A stretch of DNA of 64,000 nt from Tubulanus polymorphus (GCF_964204645.1 NC_134029.1:16982950-17046949), one strand, 5' to 3'. Counted from the first letter of the stretch, positions 23,949-53,869 are shown. Numbers and translations: made by a program. Notes: generated by a model not told the origin, from the letters alone.

Positions 23949-23950
23949 TC

Positions 23951-23971
23951 TGGTGGCAGCGTAGTGGGATT
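23951..23971 (+). promoter_or_regulatory. Primer-binding site, tRNA-Leu-like
   Basis: TGGTGGCAGCG(TA)GTGGGATT is complementary, with a 2-nt bulge, to the 3' end of animal tRNA-Leu(AAG/UAG) (...AATCCCACCGCTGCCACCA, from recall). Confidence 0.75.
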
Positions 23972-24190
23972 TGATTGTGAAAAAACCAGTTGAAATTGAG
24001 TTGAAGCGGTGAACACGTTTTTCTCCGTTTAGTCTGTGTAAATTACGGTTACTTTTTGTGTGTACTTAACGTATTTTTTTACCTACTTCGTAATTCCTAG
24101 TACATATTTAGTATTTTTAAGTGCCTGTTTCCCCTACATTTATTTGCGGTCCTGTATTTTCTGTGTCATTTATATAAAAGAATAGTAATT

Positions 24191-29836: not shown

Positions 29837-30082
29837 ATCCTATATATATATTTAGTACCCTTGTATATAACCCTGTATATATATTTACTTAGTTTTAGTA
29901 GATAGTTTATTATCATTTGTAACTGGTGGTGACTAGGATTTCAGACCCCTTGCACCTCCTGATGGTATGCTTGGGACCACCCACCTTGCATGATTCGGGT
30001 GGTATCTGAATGAACGGAATCTCCGCCATTTAGTCTTGTCGTTGCAGCCAACTCATGATTTGAACTATTTATCGTTTCTAGC

Positions 30083-30916: not shown

Positions 30917-31416
30917 ATGTGTTTCCTTCGGTACCTAACGATGGTTCACCTGGAGTCGCTTATTCTTTGTAATGTTAGTGACAAAAAGCCATTCAGTCCA
31001 AATACTACACGTGACCCCCCAGATGTAGCACACCCCATTGCGAACAGTTTCTTTCCGTTTTCTTTTGATTGTATTTTTCAGCTTCCCAGGACGAGGAACA
31101 GTGGCAGAGGGGCAAGCCAAGTGCAGTGTCCATTGGCCGTATCTACCTTTTGATGGTATAGATATTTTTGGTTAGACACTACGCTTAGGTGCGCCCCGAA
31201 AACAAACCACAAACCATTAGTGGAGATCGAAAGCTGCATGTATTATCATCACTGAGATGCAACCCTAATGCGAAACAACAACTACGTCGTGTTAGATGTC
31301 TACTGTATCCAGAGCCGAGAAGTTTGGAGCTTAATATACTATTATAAGGACTATAATTAAATTTGTGTAGATATTTTGACTATATATTCCTGTTTAAATA
31401 GGAGTTTGAACAAGTT

Positions 31417-31428
31417 GAAGGGGGGTGG
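31417..31428 (+). promoter_or_regulatory. Polypurine tract
   Basis: GAAGGGGGGTGG directly before the 3' LTR. Confidence 0.85.
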
Positions 31429-31624
31429 TGTGATGGAATATGTCCATCAGTCGTTTTCTATGTTGTAACTGGAGGGTGCTGCCCTCTCTCTCTCTCGAAA
31501 ATACAGAACAATAGGTGATTGTGTTAATATCTTTTTTCCGCCTTTTTACTGGTTTTTGGGCTCTCAGAGTCGATATTTGGAGGAAACTTCTACTGTGGAA
31601 CAGGCAGAATAGGACCTCGTTACA
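31429..31624 (+). repeat. Gypsy 3' LTR (196 bp)
   Basis: Direct repeat of 23755-23948. Confidence 0.95.
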
Positions 31625-34600
31625 ATATATTAGCAACTAAATTAGATGAATTAAAGAATGAAAAAGAAACATACAAATGTGATACATGTAATCAATCATT
31701 CAGTGATAAAAGATATTATAATGAACATTTAAAATCTAAAAGTCATATTAGAAATAAGAATAATGATATTTTAGGTGAAGATTATTTTGATAAAGATAAT
31801 GATAAGAAACAGAAGACAATTAAAAGCATAAAAAATAAATTAAACAATAAAAGACCATACATGGAAGATGTAAGAAATTATATTAATTCATTAGATAATA
31901 AAAAAGATATAGAGATAACCGAAGCATTTAAAAGTGATATTGGCCCAGCAGCTATCGAGTTTAAATTTCATAAAGGAAAAACATTAGAAGAAAATAAAAA
32001 ACATTTAGAAAATATGAAAGAAATAATAAAAATAATAACTGATGTTGAATATCCTAAAATTAGTATATCTTCTAAAGTAAAGTTTATAAAATCTTAAGAT
32101 AAACCAATATATAATATAAATTCTCATTCACAACATATTATATATAAACAACATATAGATGATAAATTAGATAAATGTTATAATGAAGTAAAAACTAAAA
32201 TAGAAGAGAAATATTTTGAAGTATCTGGTTTCATATTTGATGAAATAATATTTATGACTTTACATGTTTATAACACAAAATATGATAAGTTAACTAAATC
32301 AAAACCAATTGATGAAAATAATGTATCATATTATAAAGAACCAGACATTGAAGCATCGAGTTATATTAAACTACCATTTAAAACTAATGCTGTAATAAAT
32401 GTACAAAATGAAGATGATAAATGTTTTCTATGGGCAATAATTAGTTGTTTACACCCAGTTGAAGATTATAAACAACATAGTTTTAGATTAACTAATTATA
32501 AACCATTTGAAAATAATTATAAGATAGATAAGTATCCTGTTATAATTAAAAATATCCCAAAAATAGAAAGAGATAATAATATAAAGATAAATGTATTTGA
32601 TTTAATCAAATTACCAAATACAAAAGGTAACAATATAAAACATTATACATTAGAACCTTTATATCTATCAAAAGATTATGATTCAAACGATGTTATAGAT
32701 ATACTATATTATGAGAATCATTATATGTGGATTAAACAAATCGATTTATTTTTTAAATCAGAAAATGATCACCATAATAAAATATATCTATGTAGAAAAT
32801 GTTTACATAGATTCAGTAATGAAAGTACATTATTAAATCATAAACAATTATGTGAAAATCATGATTATTGTAAATTAGTTTTACCAAATGAAAAGGATAA
32901 AATATTAGAATTCAAAAAATATGATTACAAAAATAAAGTACCATTTGTAATATATGGAGATTTTGAATCATTAAATAAAGAATCAACTGATCAAGATAGA
33001 AAAGAAATATATTATAAAAGAAAGAAATTAAATTCTAATGAAAATTATTTTTCGGAAGAACCACCAATAACAAATACAATTAAATAGATCCATCAATCAG
33101 CTGCAGCTTTCGGGTTATATATTAAATCTGATTATCCAGAACTAATTGAAAGTGTATATTATCATTATAGAAATGAAAATGTTATCAATCATTTTTGTGA
33201 CTTATTAATTGAATATGAAATAAAATTTAACGAAAAGTTAAATAAAAATATAGAAATTATAATGACAGAAGAAGATAAAGAAGTATTTGCGTTTGCAGAT
33301 AAATGTTATTATTGTGAAAAGATATTTAATTATAAAGATAAAAAAGTAAGAGACCATGATCATTTGAACGGAAAGTTTAGAGGCGCTGCACATGAGAATT
33401 GTAACTTACAAGCTAAGAAAATTAATTTTGTACCAGTTATATTTCATAATCTATCAGGATATGATGCACATTTATTTATCAAACAGTTATGCCATAAAAT
33501 AGAAGAAATTAATAATGAAATAGAAATATTAAATTCAAATAGATCAAAAGATAAAATACCAACTTATAAATTTAGAATGTTAGCTAAAACATCTGAGAAT
33601 TATATATCATTCCAATTTGGTTGCCTAAGATTTATAGATTCATATAGATTTTTAAATAGTTCATTAGATAACTTATCAAAATCATTAGTTGATGATGAAT
33701 TAAAAATATTAAAACAACACTATCCAAATAATGATGATTTTCAATTAATGAGATATAAAGGAGCAATTCCATATTCATTTTATAAATCACATAATGATTT
33801 CAATATAACTGAATTATTGAAAGAACAATTCTATGATGAATTAAAAAATGAATATGTTAAAGATGAAGTATATAATAGAACATTGAATATTTGGAATCAT
33901 TTTAGAATGAAAAATCATGGGCAATTAGTAGATTTATATCTAAAATCAGATGTATTATTATTATCCGATATATTCGAAAGGTTTAGAGATGTAAACCTAA
34001 AATATTTCAATATTGATCCGTGTCATTGTTATTCTAGCCCAGGTTTAACATGGGATTGTGGATTAAAATTTACAGATATAAAAATGGATTTGTTAACAAA
34101 TATAGATCAATTACTATTATTTGAAAAATCTATAAGAGGAGTTTCAGGTGTATTAGGCGATAGATATTTCAATGTAAATAATAACCCTGGATATAAGTTA
34201 TTATATATAAATGCAAATAATTTGTATGGTTGGGCAATGATGGAACCACAACCTTATGGAGTATTTGAAATAAGTGAAGTTTCACAACATGAAAATAATG
34301 ATAAATTTGATTGGAAGAAAAGAATCCTAGATATTGCAGATGATTCAGATACTGGTTACTTCTTTGTTGTAGATTTAGAATATCCTGAACATATTAAATT
34401 TAAATCTAGAAATCTAGCATACTGTCCCGAACATAAAACTGTAACTCATGAAGAATTATCAAATTACCAAAAAAGAATCAAACCCGAAAATCATATTCAT
34501 ACAGAAAAGTTAATGGTAACTCAAGAAGATAAATATAATTATGTAGTACATTATTGAATGTTGAAGTTTTATCTATAACAAGGAATGGTTCTAAAAAAAG

Positions 34601-35572
34601 TACATAGACATATTTCATTTAGTCAATCTAAGTGGTTAGAAAAATATATAGATTTTAACACCAAACAGAGAACTGAAGCTAAAACTGATTTCGACTAAAG
34701 ATTTCTTCAAGTTAATGAATAATGCATTCTATGGTAAGACTTGTGAAAATATTAGAAATAGAAATGATATTGAGTTAGTTAGTAATGGTAAAAGGATACG
34801 GCATTTACAATCATATCCTAAGTTTTTAGGTAACAGAATATTTGATGAAAATTTAGCCGCAGTTAAGATGTGAAGAACATCAATGAAATTTAATTAACCA
34901 ATCTATGTTGGAGCATCAGTTTTAGAATTATCAAAATTACTAATGTATGAATTCTATTATAATGTATTACAACCACTTTTTGGAAAAAAAATATAGAAAT
35001 ACTATATTTTGATACTGACAGTTACATATTAAAGATAAAAACTAATAACATATCTGATGATTTAAAAACATTAAAACATCATTATAATATAGTAATTATC
35101 CTAAAGATCATGAATTGTTTAGCAATGATAATAAAAAAGTTCCAGGGAAGTTTAAGGATGAATTAGGTGGCGAAGAAATGATTGAATTCATTGGTATTAG
35201 ATCTAAAATGTATTCATATAAAACTAAAGAACATGAAGCTAAAAAGTTAAAAGGAATAACCAAAAGTGTAGTAGAAAAGAATATTCATTTCAAAGATTAC
35301 ATCAATTGTATATTCAATGAAGAAGTTAGAAAACATAAGATGAGATGTTTAAGATCTGAAGATCATGAAATGTTTATTGAAGAAATTGAAAAGATAAGTC
35401 TAAACCCATTTGATGATAAAAGATATATTTTAGATGATGGAATTCATACAGTTGCTTATGGTTGCAATTTAGATGAATACTTAAAATTTAAAAGAGAAGA
35501 AACAAAAGAGAAGGAAATAATGAAAAGAATTCTAACGTGTTAATCAAATTTTAATAAAAATATGTATTATAA

Positions 35573-35919
35573 ATGGAGAGTAAACAAGCACACAGTGAGA
35601 ACAACAAATTATTTCTAGATAGAATAAAAGATACTTCAAATGTCAAATCAGTAGATTATAAATTTAAGAAGAATTAATAATCCATATGAAATATCTAATT
35701 ACAAATATTGATACAGTTACTAACAAATATGGAGATCAATTAGTTATACACTTAGAATATGAAGGATTAAAAGGAAATACATATAAATTCAGAACATATT
35801 TACCGGATAGATTTCATAGATTATCAAGTGAAGATATAGAAGAATTATGTTCTGGAGATTTCTATTTCGTATACAAAGGTAAGAATGAAAAAGGGCATCA
35901 TGAAATAGATTTCGAATAA
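35573..35919 (+). pseudogene. Small Polinton protein (frameshifted), possibly OB-fold/ssDNA-binding
   Basis: TAAATG start at 35573, frameshifting into TNKYGDQLVIHL...TYLPDRF. The pattern resembles small Maverick ORFs next to pPolB; function is inference. Confidence 0.4.
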
Positions 35920-35936
35920 GAAAATATGTAAAATAA

Positions 35937-36692
35937 ATGGTAGAATTAAAAGAATACAGAATATTTGTTGATTCTAGAAGACTTACAAATTATAAATCAC
36001 ATAATTTACGAGTACAATTAGATAGAGAATTCAAGAATTGTGTAGATTTAAAATTAGTTAATATAAGTTTATGTAATTCTTTTTATAATATATCGGATAA
36101 AACTTTTGAACATTGAGGGTTTATGATTTATATGAGAAATAAAGATAAATGGTTTCACATATTTTTAAAACCAGGATTATATAATTTAGAATCATTAGCG
36201 CAGGAAATTAATAGAAGAGCTCGGTTGAAAATCGGGGGCACTTCTGTATTCGAAATTAAATTTAATAAAATTGCTAGTACTAATAAAATTAGAATAAAGA
36301 TATCTAATGAACAACATAAATTTATGGTAAACAAACCACTGGCTAAAATGTTAGGAATTAAACCGCTTACAGTTACTGGAAACGCAGAAGGCAGCTCAAA
36401 TATAATACCTTTTACACACTTTTATATTTATTGCAATTTAATCGAGCCTACAAAAACTTTCGAAGCAACTAAAGAAACAATTTGTAGTTCTAATATACTA
36501 AATATTTTACCGCTAAAAAATTTTAAACAATTTGGAACTCAAATAAATTATAATTTAACAGAATGTGATTTTAAACCTTGCATTCCTCAATTTAATAATT
36601 TTAAATTAGAAATAAGAAATCACAATGGATATTTAATTGAATTGAATAACTTTCCTGTAATTTATGAATTAGTTATAAGATGTAGAGAGTAA
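35937..36692 (+). pseudogene. Minor capsid (penton-like) protein with one internal stop
   Basis: ATG at 35937 is in frame with the 36123 ORF (TGA at 36114). Motifs DS...N.RVQL, NSFYNI, PGLYNLESL, FYIYCNLIEP and LEIRNHNG..IELN are typical of Polinton pentons. Confidence 0.75.
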
Positions 36693-36708
36693 TTATTTCA
36701 TTATATAA

Positions 36709-37062
36709 ATGAATATAACTGTTGGACCGAGTATATGTTTTGGGTTTGATTTTAAACGTGAGAAAGAAATGAAATTTAACATTAATGATGTAATTACACA
36801 TATCAAAAATATTGCATTTTCTAATGAAACAACATTTGAGTATGAAACAACAATAGATAAAGAAACTTTTAATGTAGAAAAGATTACTAATTTAATTAGA
36901 GAATCTTTAAGATTTTATGAATTAGATGAAGATTTTATCATCGATGATATTAAAAAAATAATAATTGAAATATATACAAATGAAACTAGTAATGAAATAA
37001 ATGTTGAATTAATCGTAAATAAGTTAACTAAATATTTTGATGATAGTAATTTTTTTGATTAA
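36709..37062 (+). CDS. Polinton hypothetical protein, 117 aa
   Basis: Intact ORF with TAAATG start inside the co-oriented gene block. Confidence 0.6.
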   Translation: MNITVGPSICFGFDFKREKEMKFNINDVITHIKNIAFSNETTFEYETTIDKETFNVEKITNLIRESLRFYELDEDFIIDDIKKIIIEIYTNETSNEINVELIVNKLTKYFDDSNFFD

Positions 37063-37065
37063 TAA

Positions 37066-37287
37066 ATGAGTGATAATAAGTGGATAATAACTGGATTATA
37101 TAATGGAGCATTACTATCAGTTGGAACTGTTGGTTATTCAATGGTATTAAAAAAAGTATTCAAAATGGGAAGTGTTAATGTTGATAGATTTGATATAAAT
37201 GATATTTTAAAATTAACATTAGCAGTTACTTTATCTAATTTAACTATTGATTATTTAGAAAAACAAAAATATATTCCTCCCATATAA
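37066..37287 (+). CDS. Small predicted membrane protein, 73 aa
   Basis: Hydrophobic GALLSVGTVGYSMVL and ILKLTLAVTL segments; T7-N6-TAAATG start. Confidence 0.65.
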   Translation: MSDNKWIITGLYNGALLSVGTVGYSMVLKKVFKMGSVNVDRFDINDILKLTLAVTLSNLTIDYLEKQKYIPPI

Positions 37288-37311
37288 ATGCATAATTATT
37301 TTACTAAATAA

Positions 37312-37734
37312 ATCGCTTCTGCAGTTATAACTATTATAGGATCGGCAATTGTTAACGCTTTAGCATTTACTGGTGGTGGTTATTTATTCAAGCATATTGA
37401 TAAAAATAGTTCAATAGGAGAACAAAGAAGACATAACTTAGCATTAGAGAAATACAATAAAGCAGCAGAAGAATACAGAGAAAAACGACAAAACTATATG
37501 GATTATATTAACAAGGAATTATATGATCAGAAGATTTCACATAGAGATTTTCAATCAGTTGATGATGCCATGAGTTTATATAACGCGGTAACCAATAAAG
37601 AAAAATTACATCTATACAAACCTAAATTATCAGATTATTATACCCCAAGTAAAGAACAACAGAAATATGAAATAATATGGATTTTAGGTGGAACAGTTAT
37701 TGTTATATTTGTTGCTTATAAGTTTACTAATTAG
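37312..37734 (+). pseudogene. Membrane protein whose start codon appears mutated (ATG to ATC)
   Basis: TAAATC at 37309 opens a frame ASAVITIIGSAIVNALAFTGGGYLF...RRHNLALE continuous with the 37498 ORF; hydrophobic N- and C-termini. Confidence 0.65.
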
Positions 37735-37753
37735 TAATTTTTTTGCTAAATAA

Positions 37754-38179
37754 ATGGAAGATAATATTGATATCATTCCTCATGATATCAGTAAAACTAA
37801 ATTAAAAATATATTTAGAAAAACAAATATTAGAATTTGAAAGTGACTTAAAAGTTAAAAAGAAAAAATATTTAAAATCTAAAATTATATATTATTTGATT
37901 ATAAGTGGTTCGGTTACAATTAGTTCTGTAATAACATTTCTAGCAATATTCAGCCCATTAACACCTTTAGCTATATCAATTGGTGTATTAGGATTAAGTT
38001 CAAGTGTTTTAACTGGTATAAGTTCAAAATTAAATATAAAAAGTAATAAAGAAAAAATTAAAACTAATATAAAAGAAATTAATAAATTAAAGAATACACT
38101 AGATTATATAATAAGTTTAAATGGTCATATAACAGTTGAAGAACAAGATAAATTATTAAAAGACTTAATAAATTATTAA
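37754..38179 (+). CDS. Two-TM coiled-coil protein, 141 aa
   Basis: Hydrophobic hairpin IIYYLIISGSVTISSVITFLAIF / LAISIGVLGLSSSVLTGI flanked by charged helices. Confidence 0.7.
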   Translation: MEDNIDIIPHDISKTKLKIYLEKQILEFESDLKVKKKKYLKSKIIYYLIISGSVTISSVITFLAIFSPLTPLAISIGVLGLSSSVLTGISSKLNIKSNKEKIKTNIKEINKLKNTLDYIISLNGHITVEEQDKLLKDLINY

Positions 38180-38195
38180 TTTTTTAATTATATAA

Positions 38196-39520
38196 ATGGT
38201 AGATAGTTTTCCAAAAGCTTTCCAATATAATAAATCAATTAAATATAATATTCCAGCAATAGCTTTTAATAAAGATATTACATATAGAAATGAAGTTTTA
38301 GATTCATTAATTGATTTATATATTTATGTTACTGAAAGTTATAATTTTCATGTAAAGATGGAAAATATATTTCATGTGTATACAATTAATTTCAAAAATT
38401 CAAATGAGGCAATACAATGGTTATTAAAATCTAATATGAAGTATTGGAAGAACCAATTAAATTTTGCTGTTTATTGCGCAACAACAGGATGTGGAATTAG
38501 TTGGAATGATCATTTAAACAAACCAAGTTTACCATTGATGTTATCACTTCATACAGATTTCATACATATTTTCAAATAAAATTAATATTAGATGAATTAG
38601 AATGTCCTTTACCAGGTTCAAAATATTTTAAAGAATTGAATAATAATATTAATTTTTCTAAGTTTTATAAAATATGTTATGAATTTAATATTAATTCAAA
38701 TAAAGATTTTAGAGCAAAAATTGGAACAATGGGTGGATTAGGAATATTGTATACTAAAGAATTTGGAAAAATAATGACAAATTCAGATATAAGAACACTA
38801 AATTGGAATGAATTACCAAAATATTATAATAATATACAACAACAAAATAATAATGGTTGGGTTTATTTCATTTTAGAAAATAGTGAAGGTTTTACTAAAG
38901 CTGGAATACAAAGAATAAATCAATCTATTAGAACTTATTTGATATGTATTTTAGGTGCGCAAGTTGAAACAAGATCCCCAATAATTGGAAATGATAACAC
39001 TTCATTCGATGCGCAGAAACAATTCAAAGTATTATTTGAAGATTCAATTCATAATGATAAAAATAGATCTATTCCAGAAAACAATGTAAGATATCAAAAT
39101 TATTTAGATAAATCACATATTAGATTAAATTATTGTATAGGCCCTAATCTATTTATTTCTAATGATTTAGTATTAAAGATGGGAAATATAATTGGTTATA
39201 ATAATCTAATTAAAACTGCACCAATAAATAATTCATTTGGATTAAATGATATAAATAAAAAGATAATTACTGCTCCAAAATTAATGGAAGGTGAAAAAAA
39301 TAAAAAACATATTCAATCAACAGAAACTAAAACTAAGAATATTAAATTAAATAATGATTCTAAAATAAAAGATTACAATACATCAGAAAATATTAGAACT
39401 GATAATATTCAACATGATATAATTAGAACTGATAATGATAATAAATCCCATGAAAATACTAAATTAGCTATAACTTGTATAGGAATTGTTATAGGAGGAA
39501 AATCATATTTTAAATTTTAA
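38196..39520 (+). pseudogene. Polinton protein of unknown function with C-terminal hydrophobic anchor (frameshifted)
   Basis: ORFs 38196-38579 and 38636-39520 appear to be one gene; motifs WKNQLNFAVYCATTGCGIS, GFTKAGIQRINQSIRTY, ILGAQ. Confidence 0.6.
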
Positions 39521-39536
39521 TTTTTTTATTATATAA

Positions 39537-41276
39537 ATGGATGTAGAAGGAGGTGGAGAAGATATTGGAATGGATAATTTTGATGAACCTGGCATAACTG
39601 ATGAACAACAACCTGATTTTAGTGAAACAAGTTTTAATGATGATAATAAAACAGCATATAACAATAATTTAAATAATGATGAAGATGATGATGATTTTGA
39701 TGATGATGATTATGATGGAATTAATTCCGAATTACGTGAAAAATTAATCAAATATTTAAAAGCTCCTGAAAGTGGTAGAATTAGAAACAACTAGAACAGA
39801 AAGAAAAGAATTTATGAAACTATTAGAAAAACAACAAGAAAAATATCCTGATAAACCTATGGAATTATATAGAATGAAATCTAGAGTAACAGATACAATT
39901 GTTAACGAATTATTACCAAAAGTTGTAATAGATGAAATTGATTCAGAAGGTGTTGTAGAACAAATTTTAAAAGATGACCCATTTTTCATGAATAATTTAG
40001 AATTTAAAAATGATTCATGGTATTATAATCTTGAATTAAATAGGAATATTGTAACAATTCAATTATCTAGAATGGGTCAAGAAAATATTTTTGAACCTGG
40101 AATGCGAGCATTATCTACAATTGAAGGTTCAAAAGGTGGTAGAGAATTTCTCAGAATTATATGGAATGCACTCGATAGAATAAATAAAGAAGAACCAATT
40201 CCTATTATTGATGTAAACAAATATTCACCATTTAAAAATCCAAATCCAAATCCTACTTTTGTTTATCCAGAAACTGATGAAGATTTTGCAAATCGATTAG
40301 ATAAATTAAGAAATTCAACACCAGAAACATCGAGAAGAGACACTCAACAAATTGATAATGATTCAAGTCAATTACAATTATCATTAGAAAAACAAATTGA
40401 TAGTTTAAGAGATTCAGAAGAACTGATGAATAGTATATCAGATACACCCGATCCTGAAACTGGAATAAATCGAATACAATCTTTACTAGAAAAAGGATTA
40501 CTTGATTTAACTGATGATGAATTAGAGGCATATCCTGAACAAACACGTAGAGAAATTAAAGGTATGCAAGAATCGGCTGATAAAATTGCGAATGAAAAAA
40601 GTATAAGAGATATTGAAATTAGAAATTTAGAAAAAGAATTAACTGATAAAAATAAAGAAATAGAACAATTAAAGTCTGATCTTGATCGTCAAATAATTGA
40701 TGAAATATAGAATATAGGCAAAAAGAATTACGTTTAGAAAAAGAAATTAATAATTTAAAAGATAATTTAGAAGTACAAAAAGAAGAAATTAATTCATTAT
40801 TAAAATCATATGATTATAATATTAATAGATTAAAAGTTATTTTTAAAGATTTGTTGATAAAACCAAATTCTGAAATATCATTGAAAGATAGAATAAAATT
40901 ATTATTTAAGTTAGAAGGTATAACAATTCTTTCAATTCTAACAGCTGTAACTATGTTATTTACAACAATTGGTTTAGCTATATCAAATTCACTGAAATCT
41001 ACTCCTACTCCAAATAAACCAGATAAACCCCCAGATAATAATAATTCTATACAAGATAAAGTAAAGGATGGTTTAAAGAAATTAGCAAAATATTTATGGG
41101 AACTATCGAAAAAATCCGCTGCAGCATTACCAGGAATTATTGCATCAATTGTTGGTTTTATATTGAAATCTGCAGGAAACATTATTAACTTTGCTGCTGA
41201 ACATATTATTTTATTTTTAATTACAGTTGTAAGTGCTATTATTTTTGGATTAGTAAACATGATTAAAAATAAATAA
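39537..41276 (+). pseudogene. Large acidic/coiled-coil protein with C-terminal multi-TM region (frameshifted)
   Basis: ORFs 39537-39794, 39772-40710 and 40851-41276 share one TAAATG start; ends in hydrophobic GITILSILTAV... and ALPGIIASIVGFIL...IILFLITVVSAIIFG. Confidence 0.6.
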
Positions 41277-41296
41277 TTAATTTTTTTGTTAAATAA

Positions 41297-42544
41297 ATGA
41301 GTGGGAGTTATATCAATCCTTCTAAGAATCATAGAATATCTAATGCTATTAAAGCAGAAAGATCACATCATATAATTACTCATAACCCTTCTTATATTAA
41401 TCCTGATGAAACTTTATATGTTAGAATTCCGAGATTAACACAAAATACTTTTCATGTTCCAAATAGTATTTATTTATCAGCCGATATAAAAGTAATCGGT
41501 AATAATAATAATTATGTTGTTGATAATGTTGGAAGATATTTGATTAAAAAATTAACAATTAAGATTGGTCCAGAAACAGTTTTCTCATTAGATGATTATA
41601 ATTCATTTATGCATTATAAAGATTTATGGTTAACTAAAGAAAATAGAAATAATATGATATTTCAAGGCATCCAATCAGAAAACCAAAATAAATTAAGATC
41701 AGAAGCACATAATGCAATATCAACTAATGCTGTAGATAAATTGATAAAAAGTATATATGGAAGCAAATATAAAATTCCATTAGACTTTGAATTGATAAAT
41801 AACAATGCACCTTTATATAAATACGCAATTCAAGAAGACGTTATATTCGAAATAACATTTGCTCCTGTTAATGAAATTGTAATATCTAGCGTTAATAAAG
41901 ATATGAGTTATAAATTATCGAATATATGTTTAGAATATGATACAGTAACTGATGAAAATATTTCAAGTATAATTCAAACTAAATACAATCAAGGATTTTC
42001 ATTATTATATGATTATATTGATAAATTTAAAACCGTAACTATTAATGCAAATGATGAAATTATTAATGAGAATATTAACTTCCCAAGAAGATCTATTAAA
42101 GGTATATTAATATTTTTTACCATTGCAACATATTCTAATGGTGCAATAAATGTTGATAATTATTATAATCCTGAAATAACAAAAGTAGAAATAACTATCG
42201 AAGGAATAGCAAATAAAATATTTTGTCAAGGAATGAGAATGATTGATCAATGGCCAGAAATTAGAAAACATTTTATGAATGAAAAAGTAAAATCATCTGA
42301 AAATTGTAATATTAATCAAATTGATTATTATACCGGTAATAAATATGCATTATGGTTAGATTTTAGAACAACAGAGGATAATTCATTACATGGTTCTGGA
42401 AAAAAATTACAGAACACTAAAGATGGAATACAATTATTCATGACAAAGAATAAAGGAATCAAAAATTTCAAAATGCACATTTATATTATATCTGACGCGC
42501 AATTAAATATTGTAAATTCTCAATTGAATAGTGTTATGTATTAA
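41297..42544 (+). CDS. Major capsid protein (double jelly-roll, putative), 415 aa, intact
   Basis: Size, beta-rich composition and position; motifs HNPS...LYVRIP, VVDNVGR.LIKKL.I, LSNICLEYD, YALWLDFR. Fold is inferred, not computed. Confidence 0.8.
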   Translation: MSGSYINPSKNHRISNAIKAERSHHIITHNPSYINPDETLYVRIPRLTQNTFHVPNSIYLSADIKVIGNNNNYVVDNVGRYLIKKLTIKIGPETVFSLDDYNSFMHYKDLWLTKENRNNMIFQGIQSENQNKLRSEAHNAISTNAVDKLIKSIYGSKYKIPLDFELINNNAPLYKYAIQEDVIFEITFAPVNEIVISSVNKDMSYKLSNICLEYDTVTDENISSIIQTKYNQGFSLLYDYIDKFKTVTINANDEIINENINFPRRSIKGILIFFTIATYSNGAINVDNYYNPEITKVEITIEGIANKIFCQGMRMIDQWPEIRKHFMNEKVKSSENCNINQIDYYTGNKYALWLDFRTTEDNSLHGSGKKLQNTKDGIQLFMTKNKGIKNFKMHIYIISDAQLNIVNSQLNSVMY

Positions 42545-42576
42545 AATTTTAACTTTGATAAAAACTTATATAATAA

Positions 42577-43497
42577 ATGGAAGGAGGTAAAGTATATAAA
42601 CATATTCCATACATCGATACACATGAAAATAATGATGGTTTATATTATGTAATACCTTGTAATATAGCTTTGATATTTGATCCTATTTTCAAAATTTATA
42701 AAACTAAACTAATAGCAATCGATAATAATAAAAGTGGTGTTGTTGATAATTTAAGTAATGTAATTGATAATAATGTAATACCTTCTACATCTAATAATGC
42801 AATACCTTCTACATCTAATAATGTAATACCTACTACATCTAATAATGTAATACCTTCTACATCTAATAACGTAATACCTTCTACATCTAATAATGTAATA
42901 CCTTCTACATCTAATAATGCAATAATATTAAATGTTAGTGAAAATAGAAATTATTGTGATTATTGTAAAGGTGAATTTTCAAACGCTCCATCAAATTGGA
43001 ATAATCATATGAATACAAATTCACATATTACTTAATGTTATAAAACGTGTTGGTTTAAGAGAATTTATAGAACACCCATTTAGATATGTTACAAAGTTTG
43101 TTTCAAATCAAAAAGTAAATGGTAAAGAATTATATGAAGATTTATTATTAGCAACACCTAATAAAGATAAATTAGATTTAACCGATGCTATTAAATTAGA
43201 ATCAAACATTGTAAATGAAATATTAGGAGCAAACACTAATAAAGATAATAATGAAAATGGTGCCGTATGGCACCCACATGGTGATATAGTTACAGGAAAG
43301 CGCATTGATAATAAAGATTCTATGAAACTTAAATCAGAAAATAAAGATATAGTTGAGATGACTAATAAGTATATCAATAAACCAATTATTTATGAAGATA
43401 CGGTAGAGCATTTGAATAAATTGTTAGGGTCTGATGATGAATTGGAGAGTGATGATGAAAGTGATTCAGAAAGTAATTATCTAACACTCAAAAAGTA
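42577..43497 (+). pseudogene. Protein with NNVIPSTS repeats and a C2H2 finger (frameshifted)
   Basis: 24-bp tandem repeat at 42770-42920; YCDYC...H....SH; continues in another frame after 43035 to an acidic tail. Confidence 0.55.
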
Positions 43498-43836
43498 ATA
43501 AAGGTTGAAAATTGTATAAAATAATAGTAAATAAAAAAGGGGGTTTTAAGTATTAAGGTATCTAATACGTATTTAATACATATCTAATACGTATTTAATA
43601 CATATTATTTGAAAATACCTTAAATTATATTTCTTTTTTAAATTTATATTGAAACCCCAGAAATAATAAATAACCTTTATTATTTTCAAACTTATTCATA
43701 TATTAGTTGAAAAAAATAAAAATAAATTGGTTGAAAATTGTATGAATAATATTTATTTAAAAAATGGGGTATTAATGTATTTAATACGTATCTAATACGT
43801 ATTTAAAACGTATTAGATAGATAGATATATAAATAG

Positions 43837-44451
43837 TTATTTTATAAACTTATATTCATAGGGAAATTGTAGTCTCAGTAATAATTTTGAACCTTTATTA
43901 TTCTTTAATTTATTCATATATTCATCATGTAATTCAGTAGGTATAATTTGATTTTCTTCCAATGATTGTTGCATAGATTTTTTATCTTTGTTATAAAATA
44001 AAACTAGAAATCTTATATTCTCCCTAAAGTCTTTAACAATTGAATTATATTTTTGATTTAAAACCCATGTTGTTATCCCAAAATGTCTTCCAGAGAAAGC
44101 TAGATAACATAACTCACTTTCTCTAATTTTTGAATCATGTAAATTTGCGCAATCATCTACAATGAATAATGTATTTGATCCTTTATAAGTATCAATTGCT
44201 ATTTTTATACAATTATCTAAATTTTCTTTTACTGTTTTAGGATCTAATATAATAAACTTTTTTATCTTAACTATATCTCTATTATATGTTTTATTCATTT
44301 CATAAGTAGGACAGAATAATATTATATTATCAAAATGATTCTTATAAATAGTTTCTAACAAGTCTAATATGAAATGTGTTTTACCACAATTGGTTACTCC
44401 AGTAACTACTAACATATTATGCGGTTCAAATATAAATAAATCTTTATTCAT
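43837..44451 (-). CDS. A32/FtsK-HerA-like genome packaging ATPase, 204 aa
   Basis: Walker A GVTNCGKT, Walker B LFIVDD, arginine finger SGRH and sensor VLNQ. Confidence 0.92.
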   Translation of the reverse strand: MNKDLFIFEPHNMLVVTGVTNCGKTHFILDLLETIYKNHFDNIILFCPTYEMNKTYNRDIVKIKKFIILDPKTVKENLDNCIKIAIDTYKGSNTLFIVDDCANLHDSKIRESELCYLAFSGRHFGITTWVLNQKYNSIVKDFRENIRFLVLFYNKDKKSMQQSLEENQIIPTELHDEYMNKLKNNKGSKLLLRLQFPYEYKFIK

Positions 44452-45529
44452 TTATTCTTTTAATTTTACTAGATAAAATCCATTCATTAAATTTATCATC
44501 ATATCCTTTATATTTCACCAAAGAATACTTTTTTCCTTTAAGAGTTTTTGTTTTCAATACTTTTTCTATTTTGTATTCTATTTCATCTGGATTTGGTACA
44601 AGTGATAATTTTTGTTCATAGAAATAACCTAATATTTATTCATCTTTTAGATCTTCTAGTTTATAAACAAATGGTTTAGTTAATATTATCTTTTTAATCT
44701 TGAATATTTCCTCAGTAAAATTTGGGGTATAACCTTTATAAAATGTTTTTCTATATTTAGATATTCTTATGTGTTGTCCTATTTTAAATTTAGGTTCACC
44801 GAAATCATGTGTAACAAACACACCATACAAATTATTCCAAACTATTTCTGAATTATCTTCTTTTCTAGCTTGTATAGGTTTCATACCAATACTTGAATGT
44901 TTAGAATTATTATAACCTTTCACTAAATCATCTAATACATCGATATATTTATATGTTTCATTAGCAGTAAAGTATTTCCACATTCTAGTTTTCAATGTTT
45001 TATTAAATCTTTCTATAATAGATGCTTTTTTATCTGAATGTGTTGAAAAATAATCTACATCGTTATCAGATAATAGTTTTTTAAAATGTTTGTTATAAAA
45101 TTCCTTACCTTCATCAAATTGTATCTTATCTGGAATAGCTTCTTTAAATATTGATTTAAAAGCATTTGTCACCTCTATTCCAGTTTTATTTTTGATTGGA
45201 ATTGACCATGCGTATCTACTGAATATGTCTATAACATTTAATATCCAGAAATATCCTTTGTTGTATTCTTCTAAGTTCTTCATGTCAATTAAATCTGCTT
45301 GCCATTGTTGATCGATATATGAAACCATAACTTTTCTTGTTAAATAAGTTCTATCCATTTTCTTGTGGATTTGATATGTTGGTTGATTTTGTAACCATGA
45401 TTTTAATTCACTATATTTTATATTTTCATTATCAGATTTAATTTTACTCCATAATTCTGAAACGTTAGAATATGATACTTCACTTTCTGGGTTATAATAT
45501 AAATCTCTTAAATATTGTTCTTTTTTCAT
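44452..45529 (-). pseudogene. Retroviral-type (rve) integrase with C-terminal chromodomain cut off by a premature stop
   Basis: WQADLIDM, IDIFSRYAW, QFDEGKEF, IIERFNKTLK. After the TAA at 44636-44638 the frame continues YKIEKVLKTK...SLVKYKGYDDKFNEWI (chromodomain) to a stop at 44452. Confidence 0.92.
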
Positions 45530-45899
45530 CTTCTTTTAATCCATTAATAATAATTTAGATTTAGTTTCAATGATTTATGATTTGACTTATTTTCTGGTAT
45601 GATAGGTTTATTGTCATTGGAATCATCTTTATCATCAGATTTGAATTTTGATTTATATATTACACCGGATAATATAATAACTGTTACTACTAATCAAATT
45701 GTAATATATAATTTATAATTACTTCCAGCATTAGAAGAATCAGATGGATTATTACTTGAATCAATATCAGATAAAGTCTGTGATTCATTTATATCAGTTA
45801 ATTTCTTTTTCTTAGTTTTTTTTTAATTCTGCAGATCTTTTACCTAATTCTCTTGCCCATTTAATTTGTTTTTCAGATCTAACCTTTTTCATAACGCTA

Positions 45900-46509
45900 T
45901 CACTCATTTATTTTAGTTAATTTTTGTTCTGATTCATTTTCTGTTTCCCCATTTGGTTGTAGTTCATCTGTTTCGTTCTTCACTGATTTATATTCCATAG
46001 GCTTGATATCCGAAAATGTTATGACACCAGTAGAAATTAATGTCATAACCGATCCTAATTGGAATGAAGCATATCTAACCCATTTGTGTAATTCAGTCAT
46101 AACTAAGTAGTCATTTTTCAAATCACTATATAATTTATTTATCATTAATTGGTATTAACTGGTTACATAATTTTGAATAACATTTGACAATACCATCTGA
46201 AATAGAATCATTTATTCGGGCTGCTAATCTTGCCTCTTCATAAATCTTAAAATATTTTTTTACTTTATCTGGTTTCATAGCATCTAATTCTTGAAAAGTA
46301 ATAATTCTATTTAGAAACTCTCTACACTTTCCGCTAGCAATCAATAGTTCAAGATGGTGTTTACAATATAAATAGTATTCATAATCTATATTACAATTAA
46401 CTTGAATATTATTTTCAATTTTGGCCGGAATATCCTTATTATCACTAATGCCCAAATCATCTAATGTTTTTTCAATATCAATATTATTCTTACTCGACTT
46501 CTTTGACAT
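45900..46509 (-). pseudogene. Polinton hypothetical protein (two overlapping frames)
   Basis: ORFs 46135-46509 and 45900-46145 overlap by 11 nt; only 46509 has a TAAATG start. Confidence 0.55.
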
Positions 46510-46809
46510 TTATATTAGAGAAATTTAATAAGAAAAATATTATAAGTATTATAAAATGATACCAGTATCTCTTTAGATTAATACTAGCTTAGTTAAAGGT
46601 AAAGAATTTTAGTATTAGTTATTGTTTTTTAGTATTTTTTATTTGCGATATAAAGTATTCTTTTTTGAAAAGAAAATATTAAAAAAACAATAACTAATAC
46701 TAGCTAGTTGAAGATATGTAATTTCTAATATATTTTATTTGAATTCTATTTGATATCGCACTACTTTTGTTTATCTATTAGGAGCAGTAATTATAACTGT
46801 CCAGATAAG

Positions 46810-47025
46810 TCATTTCGGATCCTTGATATCAAATTCCTCAACATATTGTTCATTATTTGGATTATTGTTCCATTGATCAATAAATTTCTTTGCCTTTGTT
46901 AACTGTTCTAAATATAACTGTAAATCTAGTTTATTAGATTTGATTTGATTTTCTTTCTTTTCAAGAGGTCTTAAATTTTTCCAATTCCAAATAAGTTTTT
47001 TATTGTATTCATCATTCCTTTCCAT
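46810..47025 (-). pseudogene. Truncated duplicate of the HNH protein C-terminus
   Basis: NDEYNKKLIWNWKNLRPLEKKEN.IKSNKLDLQLYL is nearly identical to part of 48498-49166. Confidence 0.75.
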
Positions 47026-47232
47026 TTATAAATCAAATTTTTATTAAAATTGATTAACATTTTAGAATCCTCTTCCATTTCTTCGACTAACGTCATCCTT
47101 TTTCATTCCTCGCTGCTTTTGATAAGTCATTTCGGATCCTCGATAATAAATCCTCAACTGAAAATCAATTCAACGAAACGACTGGTGGAAATATTATTTC
47201 ATAAACACATATATTTATTATGTAAATTTTAG

Positions 47233-47590
47233 CGATCGATAATAGAACAATGGAGAACAATAGAAAAGCGGTCCAATCGGACCGGTTATTGCAAAATACA
47301 CAGTTATATTTTTATTCTGTAAACTACAACATTCAAACATAGAAATGTAACCCATCAATACTGAGCAGCTGTTTCCGTCAACAACGATCAATAATAGAAC
47401 AATGGAGAACAATAGAAAAGCGGTCCAATCGGACCGGTTATTGCGCAATACTTAGTTAACAGTAAACAATCAATACAGAACAACCGCCGCCATTAACAAC
47501 GATCAATAATAGAACAATGGAGAACAATAGAAAAGCGGTCCAATCGGACCGGTTATTGCGCAATACTTAGTGAACAGTAAACAATACAAT
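47233..47590. repeat. Three direct repeats, each with a palindromic core
   Basis: CGATC(A/G)ATAATAGAACAATGGAGAACAATAGAAAAGCGGTCCAATCGGACCGGTTATTGC starts near 47233, 47386 and 47500. Confidence 0.9.
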
Positions 47591-47662
47591 ATTAAAACAG
47601 ATATATACAATCGAGATTACATTTTTTGATATCTATATTACAAAGACCTCCAGTGTTATAAT

Positions 47663-48130
47663 TTATAATTTTGTCCAGAATTCTTTAATTACTGGATTGT
47701 TTCCAATCATTTCTTCAATTTCTGGTAAATATCTGACTACTTCACTAAATGCTAATCCTAATATTTTGAATTTTTCATATTTTATTAATCTACCTACTCT
47801 TCTCAGTTTTCTTTCAAAACCGGCACTGATATCTCCACTCATTTTCTTAGTTTTCGATTCTTTGAGTCCCAACAGCAATTTAAGTCGCGTTGCTGGTAAT
47901 TTTGGTAATTGTAGTTCGCGCGGTAATTGTTTATTATGTATTACATCACTCAGAATTTTCACCATTTCTTGATGATAGTCCAAATGTTCTTGTAATTTTT
48001 GTGAAGTTTGTTCGTCAATTACGAGAGTTTTATCCTCCATTTCTATTGATTCCTGTGTTTCACTATCCGTCGTTTCTGGTTCCTCATCCATTGGTTGGCT
48101 TGGAATTTCTGGTTGATCTCTGTATTCCAT
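47663..48130 (-). CDS. Polinton hypothetical protein, 155 aa, acidic N-terminus
   Basis: Intact ORF with TAAAATG start; no recognisable motif. Confidence 0.55.
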   Translation of the reverse strand: MEYRDQPEIPSQPMDEEPETTDSETQESIEMEDKTLVIDEQTSQKLQEHLDYHQEMVKILSDVIHNKQLPRELQLPKLPATRLKLLLGLKESKTKKMSGDISAGFERKLRRVGRLIKYEKFKILGLAFSEVVRYLPEIEEMIGNNPVIKEFWTKL

Positions 48131-48497
48131 TTTAATCTAAAAGATGTCGTGAAAATGAATTACTGTACTTAAATATGTTTAAAGGTTTCCCTACTTCATA
48201 ATAACTACAAAAAACGGTACTTACACTTAGATTTAGAACTGTAAACTGTGTTTTGAGAGAGAATATCCAATACGTACTATGTATGTGAAAGTTGATTTCT
48301 AACTGCCGACGTGGCGCACGTTCAACCAAACTAATTATTTCTGCACGTTTGCCTGGATTGTAACAGATGTTCCTTTGTGATGAAGTTAATTAATTCTTTA
48401 GAATTGAAAACAAGATATATTTGGCAACATATGTTTTAGTAGTAAGCAAAAGCTATGTATTATATACATACAAAGCTCAAATAGAATTGCCAGCTTT

Positions 48498-49166
48498 CTA
48501 ACCACTGATTAAAACCTCAGAATGCGGTTGATTCTGTGAAATACTATTCCACAATTCAACAAATGTCTTTGCTTTATCCAGTTGATCTAAATATAACTGT
48601 AAATCTAGTTTATTAGATTTAATTATGTTTTCCTTCTTTTCTAAAGGTCTTAGATTCTTCCAATTCCAAATAAGTTTTTTATTGTATTCATCATTCATGT
48701 CAAATTTAGAAATCGGCAACACGTGATCAATATGAAAGTATTCACCATAATTATCTATATTCATTTTATCATCGAATTGATATATTATCCATGATTTGAG
48801 AAATTCATCTGAACAACCCAACAAATTAGATAATGTTTCTGAATGTGTTTCTTTGTTGAATAATTGTGTTAATCTAGATCTTAAGCATTGTTTCAATCTA
48901 AAATTAAGATCTGTTTGATATCTTTCTCTCATATATTCTGCCATATAATAATTATAATGTTCTATATTATCTTCTCGGTATTGTTTGGTGTATAGTTTAA
49001 AACAAGTTTTACAGCAATATTGAAAACCATCTTTGCTAATCTTACGCTTATTAAATTCTGTTATAGCTAATTTATCTATTTCACATTTAGAACACTTCTT
49101 GTAGTATATATTTATGACACCAGTGTTATTTGTAATATTGATAGTTCGTGGTTGTTCTGGTTCCAT
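48498..49166 (-). CDS. HNH endonuclease-like protein with N-terminal Cys4 module, 222 aa
   Basis: KKCSKC...EF....KDG....CKTC and FHIDHVLPISKFD...NWKNLRPL...EN..KSNK, an HNH type seen in large DNA viruses and phages. Confidence 0.78.
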   Translation of the reverse strand: MEPEQPRTINITNNTGVINIYYKKCSKCEIDKLAITEFNKRKISKDGFQYCCKTCFKLYTKQYREDNIEHYNYYMAEYMRERYQTDLNFRLKQCLRSRLTQLFNKETHSETLSNLLGCSDEFLKSWIIYQFDDKMNIDNYGEYFHIDHVLPISKFDMNDEYNKKLIWNWKNLRPLEKKENIIKSNKLDLQLYLDQLDKAKTFVELWNSISQNQPHSEVLISG

Positions 49167-49187
49167 TTATTATACATATTTTTTTAC

Positions 49188-49630
49188 TAAATTGATTTTA
49201 GAAGTTCAATGATTTATATCATGTATCATTTCAATCACACTTTACTAATACTTTTAATGTTTAAACATCTAACTCATACAAATATAAATAGTGAAATAAT
49301 GTTGTAAATATATACTTTTATATTGAATAATCTGTCAATTTAAATGTTATTCGTGTATATGATTATTTTAAGAGTAATAGGGGTAATAGGCTTTCAGGTT
49401 AAAGGTTGAACGGGCGGGTGAGTAAAAAATGAAAATAATTACATTTTCTACTTGAATTAGGAGTGAAACTCATAAAAATGAAAAATAAATTCGAGTGTGT
49501 GAGAATTTATTTTTCATTTTTATGAGTTTCGCGAGTAATTCAAGTAGAAATTGTAATTATTTTCATGTTTTTCATTTTTACGAGCTCGACCGTTCGACCT
49601 TTGGCTTGAAAGCCTATTACCCCTATTACT
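49188..49630 (-). repeat. Polinton right TIR (443 bp); outer 258 bp (49373-49630) is an imperfect palindrome
   Basis: Inverted copy of 23157-23608. Confidence 0.95.
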
Positions 49631-50995
49631 AAAACAGAGCAGTTGGCATCCCTGCACATTTGAAAACTAGAGGACCAAAGGTCCTGAGGCTCGAAATATG
49701 TAAGCAACCGACTTACTATTGATGATGCAACGCGATGCAACGCGACGATCGCGTCGCATCGCAAGGTCGACCTACGCCCGGCTTTAGATACGATTAGAGG
49801 GGTTGAGACACGAAGGTATCATTCTAGCCATGATGCATGTTTAATCCATATACTATCAAGGTTACAAAGTACTTACCACTGACCATATGATACAGTCTGC
49901 TCTTGGGACAATCGCCAAGAACCCATGACATAGGTCAATAACCATGCAGTCCATGGGGTACAAGCTTTACATCCACGTGTTAACACAGTTGATTTGACGC
50001 TCTTCACAGACTGAACAAAAGGCCAACTGCTCCAGCTGTACGCTTAGGGCCTGGAGCTTTTCTAACGATCCACCAAGTGGAACAGAATAAATATTTTCCA
50101 TCTCCAGGGTAAAAATCCCCTAGGTAAAAATCTCCTATGTAAAAATCCCTAATTCTTCAAAGTAGGTAAATATCCCCCTCTTTATGAATGCATTCTAAGT
50201 AGATATACAATCTTAAGGTCAATTAATTCATATTACTGATACATATATCCAATTAATTCATATTTTTCTGTGGAACACCATAAGGATATCATGAGCATAC
50301 AAACTATAGTATATGATACATAACAAATTCACAGTTCGTTGATACTAAATTTATTAGTACTTAAGGTTATCGCACAGCTTAACCCTTTCAGTGCGTCTAC
50401 ACCGCAGCGCGGTGTATAAATTGGTGATGGATTTTGCTAGTACACCGCACGACAGTGTATTGATGTAATTAGTAATTATCTCTCTTGAAAAATGACAGCA
50501 CCTGTCAAACATAGTGAAATACTGGTAACGATACACCGCACCGCGGTGTAGATGCACTATAGTGGTAGTCCTATTAGTCAACACGCTAGGGTGGAATTTA
50601 AAAAAATTTTCAAATTATCTCCAGCACTATAGGGTATTAATTTGAAAGTTAAACGAGCCTTACCTGAAAGGTGAAGTTTGACTGGAATTCTATAGAGTGA
50701 GGTTATGGGTTGGAGATCAAATGAGATATGCCTCGCACATGCGCCATCAGTATTCAACAAATACTGTTTTGGAGCCCTAACAATGGGAGTGGAAGGGAGG
50801 GCATTTGATCTCCAACCCATAACCTCACTCTATAGAATTCCAGTCAAACTTCACCTTTCAGGTAAGGCTCGTTTAACTTTCAAATTGTATTTCGTTTCGG
50901 TTATGGGTTTTGGAGACCCAATGAGACTTCAAAGAAGCGACAAAACAGTAACAACTCAAATGTACGTAGTATTGCGAAAATTTATTAACATATAA

Positions 50996-51990
50996 TCACT
51001 TCTTCAATACTCCTTCCACAAAATTCTGCGAATCATGTTTAATTGGTTTTCCATAATACTTAGCAAAAGTCGCTGCGTTAGACCAACCAGCCGTTTTCAA
51101 AATATCTTCCAAAGGCACATCGTTCAGCTTAGCTTTCGAGGTAGCTGCCGCCCTTACACTATGAGGCTTAAATACTTTTGTATCAATTCCAGCCTGCGAC
51201 ATCGCAGTTTTTACCCATCTGCTTATTGTATCTCTCGAAACTGCTTTGTATGGTTTTACGTAACTAACGAACAATCTAGGTTCAGATTCCCGAATATCCT
51301 TAGTTCTCCTAATATATTCCGACAATGCAAGATGAGCACAAATTAACCTATTTACATAATACTTTTTAATACAAACATCTGGGGGAATATATCCCCTTTG
51401 TGACTGTTTTAAATCGGTTCTCCCAAAATAAAACTTATAATTCTCGTTCTCTTTAATCATCTGATCTAATCGTAACAAACTCAATGACTGCGCTGGTCTG
51501 GCAGCCATAATCAACGATAATAACATCACAAGTTTCAAAGTCAACTATTTCAAACTTAAAAATCTAACAGGCGATAAACTCTCCGCCCAATTTAAAACAA
51601 CAGAAACATCCCATATATAAGTATATCTAACCTGGGGCGGTCTCAAATTGTACAATCCTTTCATAAATCTAGACACCAAGGGGTGAGCCCCTATACTCAT
51701 TGAATTATATCTCCCAACAACTTCTACAATCTGAGCAACAGCAGACCTCGCTGTGTTCACTGCACTGTAACTTAAGGTTTCTACATCAACAAGATAAACA
51801 AAAAATTCGAGATACTACTCTACAGAGGGATGAATTGGATTAACTTTCCATTTATTACAAAACCGTTTCCATTTCCTGAGAAAAACTTCATACTGTTGAT
51901 GTGTGCCCTTTTTCCATGAGGCCAACAATATCTCTCTAGTCCTTGTTGAAAACGTCTGTTTTTCTCCTGACCTCCAGAAACTAGACAGGC
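50996..51990 (-). pseudogene. DIRS tyrosine recombinase, with stops
   Basis: MNTARSAV, HPLVSRFMKG, R in AARPAQSL, HSVR, TAGWSN..TFAKYY. 5' boundary approximate. Confidence 0.9.
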
Positions 51991-53810: not shown

Positions 53811-53869
53811 ATGAAACTGTAGACTTCCAGCGGTTTTAATAGTAAAATCTGACTTTCTACTAACCTGAC

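Follow-up and report, generated by a model that had tools for sequence, protein, structure and literature searches.

A 64,000-nucleotide stretch of the Tubulanus polymorphus genome (NC_134029.1:16982950-17046949; hereafter the window) carries a decayed Maverick/Polinton element, most genes of which open with TAAATG behind an upstream pattern of fixed spacing. On sequence grounds, this motif, shared with related Polintons, is probably (roughly 0.6) a poxvirus-type post-replicative promoter, for which a pox-like virus infecting the same cell would supply the RNA polymerase in trans.

A sequence-only reading of the window had stated that nearly every gene starts in TAAATG, under either T7-N6-TAAATG (class T) or an A-run ahead of TAAATG (class A). 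Among 18 inferred gene starts, 14 were TAAATG; two (23630 and 48130) were TAAAATG, one (37312) was TAAATC, and that of the integrase gene (45529) was neither. The T7-N6-TAAATG and class A sites listed in that reading were all present where it had placed them. Its list lacked the starts of the packaging ATPase gene (44451) and of the genes at 45907 and 46509, and included 37312, which has no start codon. Class T, assigned to a capsid and membrane block, was found at the major capsid and membrane genes, and the penton gene at 35937 proved to be class A. The starts with the motif or a variant of it are given below, with upstream positions counted back from TAAATG and L numbers denoting loci fetched for comparison.

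35557-35575, plus strand: A-run, T at -9, and TAAATG; small gene 35573-35919, in two pieces, with a homologue in L003
35921-35939, plus strand: A-run, T at -9, and TAAATG; penton gene 35937-36692, in two pieces
36693-36711, plus strand: T-rich variant; 117-aa gene 36709-37062 without known family, 67% to L003
37050-37068, plus strand: T7-N6-TAAATG; 73-aa gene 37066-37287, also in distant Polintons
37296-37314, plus strand: TAAATC in a like layout; conserved Polinton gene (37312-37734) that lacks a start codon here
37738-37756, plus strand: T7-N6-TAAATG; 141-aa two-helix membrane protein gene 37754-38179
38180-38198, plus strand: T6 variant; conserved Polinton gene 38196-39520, in pieces
39521-39539, plus strand: T7-N6-TAAATG; coiled-coil/membrane gene 39537-41276, in pieces
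41281-41299, plus strand: T7-N6-TAAATG; major capsid protein gene (open frame of 415 aa, 41297-42544)
42561-42579, plus strand: A-run with C at -9; repeat/zinc-finger gene 42577-43498, in pieces
44449-44467, minus strand: A-run, T at -9, and TAAATG; A32-like packaging ATPase gene 43837-44451, open (PF04665, E 1.6e-11)
45905-45923, minus strand: AAATT and TAAATG; short basic gene starting at 45907, homologues in L001, L003, and L005
46507-46525, minus strand: AATTT and TAAATG; conserved Polinton gene 45900-46509, in two pieces
47023-47041, minus strand: A-run, T at -9, and TAAATG; incomplete duplicate (71 aa) of the HNH-type gene
49164-49182, minus strand: A-run, T at -9, and TAAATG at the inner edge of the terminal repeat; HNH-type gene 48498-49166, weak HNH match in the L001 homologue

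Enrichment over shuffled AT-rich background was a check named beforehand, and it was observed with 300 dinucleotide shuffles in 300-nt blocks. T7-N6-TAAATG occurred four times (37066, 37754, 39537, and 41297) against a mean of 0.07, and A4-N9-TAAATG seven times against 0.91; none of the 300 shuffles reached either count. Six of the seven A4-N9-TAAATG sites were gene starts (35573, 35937, 42577, 44451, 47025, and 49166), the remaining one lying inside pPolB, and AAAATATGTA-N3-TAAATG occurred three times (35573, 35937, and 49166). The class A sites are real and partly duplicated, which reduces their independence: 23630 and 49166 sit in opposite terminal repeats, and the segments 35519-35583 and 47015-47079 align at 83%. 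TAAATG by itself was in mild excess in the element (50 compared with 37.5 shuffled; 7 of 300 shuffles). As the shuffles are blind to the fact that genes start with ATG, TAAATG at starts was compared with TAAATG elsewhere in the element. T at -9 together with only A or T at -13 to -10 was found at 13 of 14 gene starts and at 4 of 36 other TAAATG sites (Fisher p = 8e-8).

Distribution of the motif among related Polintons

A metagenome scan provided 78 capsid loci. The capsid gene started in TAAATG at 13 of the 14 loci with at least 51% identity. Of the remoter loci, 41 were examined; an ATG could be placed in 36 of them, none of which had TAAATG, and not in the other 5. The close group was drawn after this gap was visible, and L042 (58%) was then added. 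In a quick capsid tree, for which the careful search is unfinished, the carriers formed one side of a branch comprising 18 of 53 rows (15 loci, the window, and two database proteins), with a Shimodaira–Hasegawa-like approximate likelihood ratio test (SH-aLRT) value of 99.6. The motif is restricted to this one Polinton clade, within which capsid proteins are about 50% alike, and is absent from the sister clades.

Of the open reading frames (ORFs) of at least 100 aa, 51 of 60 in the 15 clade loci started in TAAATG, compared with 7 of 270 in 63 distant Polinton loci. The AT-rich distant Polintons (11 loci) had one TAAATG among 30 ORF starts, clade loci of 30-44% G+C had 19 among 22, and across all ATGs of the clade loci TAAATG was found at 141 of 2272. 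After removal of two near-duplicate loci (L002 and L013), the upstream pattern of A's and T's with T at -9 accompanied 43 of 51 clade starts and 9 of 74 non-start TAAATG sites. The spacing was kept in relatives, a second check named beforehand. Genes unrelated to one another carry the pattern, and it persists where gene order has been rearranged. In head-to-head gene pairs 19-30 nt apart, both genes start in TAAATG with no gene upstream.

The clade starts had T at -9 in 48 of 51, T at -10 in 37 of 51, and A at -15 in 40 of 51, and C and G were nearly absent from -13 to -9. These five bases were A's followed by T's in 51 of 65 starts. Zero to four T's were counted there in 13, 8, 7, 16, and 21 starts, respectively, compared with 1.8, 10.4, 22.7, 22.0, and 8.0 expected by chance, and the distribution was two-peaked. 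Given the A-then-T order and the two peaks, the two classes of the sequence-only reading are the ends of a sliding A-to-T boundary. A class is also not tied to a gene, because orthologues switch: most loci have a T-rich capsid gene start, and L010, L012, and L013 have an A-rich one. The penton gene start is A-rich in the window and in L003. The starts are better read as a single grammar, in which an A-run yields to a T-run with a nearly fixed T at -9 ahead of TAAATG. The A-rich and T-rich ends of this spectrum may tune timing or strength.

A capsid search of viral contigs and prokaryote genomes yielded no relative. Clade capsid proteins (the cluster of P0045) are filed under several Bartonella names on contigs shorter than 1.7 kb, likely as eukaryotic DNA contamination. 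Two clade relatives carry a deoxynucleoside kinase gene (PF01712, E 1e-31; L003 10343-10981 and L010 2898-3380), which would fit replication where nucleotides are scarce.

Comparison with poxviruses and alternative explanations

In the portions of the cited papers that were available, poxvirus late promoters have TAAAT(G) over the start codon and a conserved T ten bases upstream among further T's, and intermediate promoters have TAAA without that T, an A-rich tract standing in its place (PMC11980589, PMC5294985). The T-rich core of late promoters lies 5-7 bp ahead of TAAAT (PMC5294985). Criteria for the intermediate class further include an AT-rich core 15-19 nt upstream. TAAATG has been recorded in an entomopoxvirus (PMC3061580) and in salmon gill poxvirus (PMC4542343).

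In an 18-kb central stretch of A genes from an orthopoxvirus record (L199), 10 of 20 ORFs started in TAAATG, nine with T at -10 and six with T at -9. With names given by order and length, all of these were orthologues of genes classed as intermediate or late in the available part of PMC11980589. The A15L-type start of L199 has an A-rich core, and the AAAAT cores of the Polinton clade, without T at -10, resemble it. In a salmon gill poxvirus stretch (L211), 11 of 19 ORFs started in TAAATG, and AAAAT and TTTTT cores were both present. T7-N6-TAAATG opens an A14-family gene (Pfam) and a gene with a PLD-like match in the poxvirus records, the latter presumably F13L. A14L is classed as late and F13L as intermediate (PMC11980589), and the earlier equation of two fixed classes with late and intermediate promoters was not supported as it stood, given this result, the sliding boundary, and the switching orthologues. 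The more general claim of a match to real poxvirus post-replicative starts held, in that the clade signal resembles these starts in register. TAAATG opens 85% of clade genes and about half of poxvirus genes. AT-rich giant-virus bins gave 10 TAAATG among 89 starts, in seven stretches from four bins, each chosen for one motif match. Among 63 upstream regions, no enrichment was obtained for TATA box, Inr, baculovirus late, mimivirus early, or yeast linear-plasmid motifs. Coding-strand counts of TTTTTNT, AATAAA, and splice-like words were no guide to whether a Polinton belonged to the clade or was a distant one.

The sequence-only reading had also described the element as lacking an RNA polymerase, and no RNA polymerase or transcription-factor family was found in 31 ORFs of the window and 44 ORFs of relatives. 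The longest open frame apart from pPolB is 415 aa, which leaves no room for an RNA polymerase gene in the element. Under the proposed mechanism, a pox-type polymerase supplied in trans would initiate on the A-run of TAAAT and produce a slipped 5′ poly(A) leader, and transcription would take place inside the cytoplasmic factory of the helper. There the element would be copied by its own pPolB and packaged by its own ATPase and capsid, and its integrase would allow storage in the host germ line. Such a life cycle would be of the virophage type, as in mavirus and Gezel-14T; here the helper would be pox-like and the host an invertebrate. The element likely behaves as virophages do, with a pox-like virus as its helper, while being filed as a Maverick/Polinton and not as a virophage. 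We put forward more tentatively, at somewhat less than an even chance, that the whole clade of animal Polintons comprises endogenous poxvirus virophages in the germ line of non-insect invertebrates, activated by viruses of an undescribed pox-like branch and multiplying in their factories.

Several observations weigh against a pox-like helper. The T peak lies at -9 in the Polinton clade (94% of 50) and at -11/-10 in pooled chordopoxviruses (84% and 89% of 19). The poxvirus controls were three short stretches, from three of nine fetched chordopoxvirus loci of close kin. No early-type promoter was detected in the clade: the poxvirus early core was not clearly enriched (5 of 63 compared with 2.2 expected; 22 of 300 shuffles), and pPolB and integrase, which would be expected to be early genes, use the same or a similar start. 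TTTTTNT, the poxvirus early terminator, had a coding-strand ratio of 0.35, its mirror image 0.47, and distant Polintons 0.56, so the depletion is unspecific. One clade locus (L014) had no TAAATG at its two starts, and counts over orthologous genes of related loci are not independent. Tight head-to-head pairs are equally common in distant Polintons (6 versus 35 pairs, p = 0.33), so compactness alone is no argument against host polymerase II. The proposed mechanism would also require a nuclear integrated copy to reach a cytoplasmic helper polymerase. When viral contigs were scanned for the T-class pattern, at least 116 loci matched, 14 of those listed opened an ORF, and no helper was singled out. 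A helper search by the poxvirus intermediate factor A23 gave 41 matches, of which all the named ones were chordopoxviruses, and the family profile search gave 13 representatives, eight of them diverged, with no link to this host. Nine proteins from public assemblies (P0200-P0207 and P0213) are diverged members of this poxvirus intermediate transcription factor family (PF05718 above the cut-off); five form their own cluster, and one lies on a 170-kb contig.

The motif could alternatively be a host signal, either a lineage-specific polymerase II initiator with a very short 5′ untranslated region or an A-rich Kozak context with an in-frame stop, with nuclear transcription as in other Polintons. 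Integrated copies are nuclear, and distant Polintons are as compact as those of the clade and have AAA as their commonest pre-ATG triplet (42 of 270). The clade loci may share a host lineage. We nevertheless consider a host signal unlikely, as a start context leaves the fixed T 12 bases before ATG and the scarcity of C and G at -13 to -9 unexplained, and TAA stands ahead of ATG in only 7 of 270 starts of other animal-type Polintons. Moreover, at the 25-30 nt spacing given in the part of PMC5294985 available, a TATA-like element abutting ATG would place the polymerase II start inside the gene.

A helper other than a poxvirus, with a pox-related polymerase of its own, is improbable as well. It could be an asfar- or ego-like virus or a linear cytoplasmic element that, like yeast pGKL2, codes for an RNA polymerase; the latter might be a sister Polinton. 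The initiator at 51 of 60 clade starts is TAAATG and not TATATG. Late promoters of African swine fever virus are likewise bipartite, with TATTT and then TATATA (PMC5294985). The yeast elements pGKL1 and pGKL2 are, by the available part of PMC6211774, linear DNA with pPolB, a TAAAN initiator, slipped poly(A) leaders, a pox-related polymerase, and one element leaning on the polymerase of its partner. They differ in their ATNTGA core and in the polymerase carried on pGKL2, whereas the Polinton instead has capsid and integrase genes. The yeast upstream conserved sequence ATNTGA was not enriched (12 of 63 compared with 15.7 expected), and no polymerase gene was found in the fetched clade loci, which are fragments of 1.7-11.5 kb. 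The difference of the -9 peak from chordopoxviruses favors such a helper.

That the motif is a relic, kept by descent from an ancestor dependent on a pox-like helper while present copies are plain transposons, is very improbable. Its spacing is kept across sub-branches at about 50% capsid identity and through rearrangements into head-to-head pairs, which points to continued selection over long times. On the other side, the window copy is broken in many genes and has many relatives: in a DNA run with the same species label, element depth of about 460-820, compared with 6-12 in unique flank bins, corresponds to roughly 50-100 related copies, which share 85-99% identity; at either terminus the loose ends are mixed.

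An origin of TAAATG in the coupling of stop and start codons, or in chance within AT-rich sequence, is scarcely credible, since the AT-matched controls were negative, even though TAAATG alone was only mildly over the shuffles. Coupling in particular was ruled out, with the stop of the upstream gene 3-32 nt from the start at 10 of 10 same-strand junctions of the plus block and both head-to-head genes starting in TAAATG.

Architecture and surroundings of the element

The sequence-only reading covered 35545-49190; the Polinton is larger than that interval, with the following further features.

23157-49630, no strand: Maverick/Polinton, decayed copy; 18,604 bp once the long terminal repeat (LTR) insertion is subtracted
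23157-23638, plus strand: left terminal inverted repeat, about 483 bp, 95% identity to the right copy
49158-49630, minus strand: right terminal inverted repeat
23630-23754, plus strand: 5′ piece of pPolB with a zinc finger; start TAAAATG behind an A-run
23755-31624, plus strand: Ty3/Gypsy-type LTR retroelement, 7.9 kb, within pPolB; 196-bp LTRs, 4-bp target duplication ATAT
31625-35543, plus strand: remainder of pPolB and an endonuclease VII domain, in several pieces (stops, frameshifts); PF03175 (E 3e-9), PF02945
43545-43833, no strand: convergence point of the two gene blocks, with short repeats and palindromes
44636-45529, minus strand: retroviral-type (rve) integrase, PF00665 (E 1.7e-9); first ATG without TAAATG, which the L001 orthologue has
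47663-48130, minus strand: 155-aa ORF with start TAAAATG; no relatives among the fetched loci, poor model (predicted local distance difference test score 47)

The element is a member of the animal Mavericks/Polintons (Polintoviricetes; adintoviruses), with terminal repeats, a 6-bp target duplication (AAAACA at 23151-23156 and 49631-49636), pPolB, rve integrase, A32 ATPase, capsid, and penton genes, and a length of about 18.6 kb. Its G+C content is about 24.5%, compared with 39% in the flanks. The capsid gene (41297-42544, 415 aa) had 924 homologues and a weak PF16903 match (E 0.007); a profile built on 50 capsid sequences retrieved no solved virophage capsid. Gene 35937 is predicted to fold like a penton (minor capsid) protein: its L003 orthologue, in a low-confidence model, matched the mavirus penton (E 7.7e-5) and aligned to a Paramecium bursaria chlorella virus 1 (PBCV-1) chain with Z 10.1 and a root-mean-square deviation of 2.9 over 127 residues. 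The 117-aa ORF at 36709 had no atlas match and no database homologue apart from its relative in L003, and neither this ORF nor the 155-aa one at 48130 was linked to transcription. No adenovirus-type cysteine protease was matched in the 31 ORFs of the window (Pfam), in which the Polinton copy is decayed, and no maturation protease of virophage type was found; the cysteine protease is described as a hallmark of group 1 Mavericks in the available part of 10.64898/2026.06.19.733378. No Rfam family was found within 23000-50000.

The outermost 267 nt of the terminal repeats form an imperfect palindrome (23157-23423 and 49373-49630), the sequence of the outer end recurring inverted 267 nt inward. It folds as a hairpin (-96 kcal/mol, z -22) and looks like an opened hairpin telomere. 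Repeats and palindromes such as those past the plus-strand block also occur in L001 (3720-3837), L003 (9173-9340), and L005 (3163-3275), and in all four elements they sit close to, or right at, the point where genes converge; they are possibly a 3′-end signal or an origin.

The Gypsy-type insertion is outside the promoter system. It carries an extra 277-aa ORF downstream of pol (30083-30916) with a weak GDSL/SGNH match (E 0.008), over which depth was raised about 10-fold in run X4. In run X1, the summed contig depth over 31608-47035 was thousands of times that of the unique flank, with no comparable rise over 47036-48363, and the raw reads of X6 gave about 50-100 times. The excess in X1 may reflect an artefact of the assembly graph, additional copies of the element, or amplified DNA. 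It was not used as evidence of replication because short overlapping contigs inflate the sums and X1 may be the source sample.

Elsewhere in the window, a tyrosine-recombinase retroelement (DIRS-like) with reverse transcriptase and phage-integrase matches lies at 50996-55304, and a 59-bp satellite in 54 copies at 59603-62812, with an inverted block of the 59-bp unit at 63396-64000. The left flank contains an 850-bp inverted repeat (19444-20290 and 21226-22068, 98% identity) and, on the minus strand at 9290-10279, an intronless 329-aa Srw-like host G protein-coupled receptor gene, for which the nearest atlas clusters are from Mollusca and Rotifera, a faint hint of a non-insect invertebrate host.

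Known helper-dependent systems and meaning of the motif

Among animal Mavericks/Polintons, the clade stands apart by its near-universal TAAATG starts with fixed spacing, absent in the 63 distant loci, and this element also by its 267-nt terminal hairpin. Mavirus likewise carries pPolB and an rve integrase and integrates. It has reportedly been reactivated from the integrated state, by a route that is unsettled.

Sputnik, mavirus, and Gezel-14T are established cases in which the promoters of the helper are shared (10.1101/2022.07.28.501842). Like the virophages and helper-dependent Polinton-like viruses (PLVs) in the pairs mavirus/CroV, Sputnik/mimivirus, and Gezel-14T/PgV, the element has no polymerase of its own and has upstream motifs resembling a large-virus promoter. 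Unlike the present case, with an animal host and a pox-type motif, those systems have protist hosts, mimivirus-type helpers, and experimentally shown dependence. PLVs from entomopoxvirus occlusion bodies have also been described (AHEV_PLV1/2, CBEV_PLV1, and Ca_PLV1; PMC11296320, in part) and are similarly small and proposed as parasites of invertebrate poxviruses. By that description they differ in being about 12 kb long, with a cysteine protease, no rve integrase, and highly diverged capsids. They were tied to poxviruses by co-purification, the word "promoter" occurring 0 times in the main text and supplement of PMC11296320.

TAAATG promoters in Polintons were unreported in the literature searched, a scope outside which lay preprint supplements, figures, and most subscription papers. 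"Promoter" occurred 0 times in the available parts of two PLV surveys (10.64898/2026.06.19.733378 and 10.64898/2026.10.13.758929) and of the reports on animal viruses (10.1101/2024.03.25.586562) and the egovirus (10.1101/2024.03.23.586382).

Animal Mavericks/Polintons might live as transposons, as parasites of a helper, or as nuclear viruses in their own right, and the signature of this clade bears on that question. It is countable, present in one clade and lacking in its sister clades, and of the type used by a cytoplasmic virus. If a pox-like helper reads it, the question would be testable by ordinary RNA 5′-end mapping and a reporter assay, and pox-like viruses would be predicted in invertebrate groups without reports in the literature searched. 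The motif would then serve as a sequence test for "transposon" Polintons that depend on a helper, record the promoter consensus of that helper, and point to the missing poxviruses, and the virophage lifestyle would extend from protists to animal germ lines.

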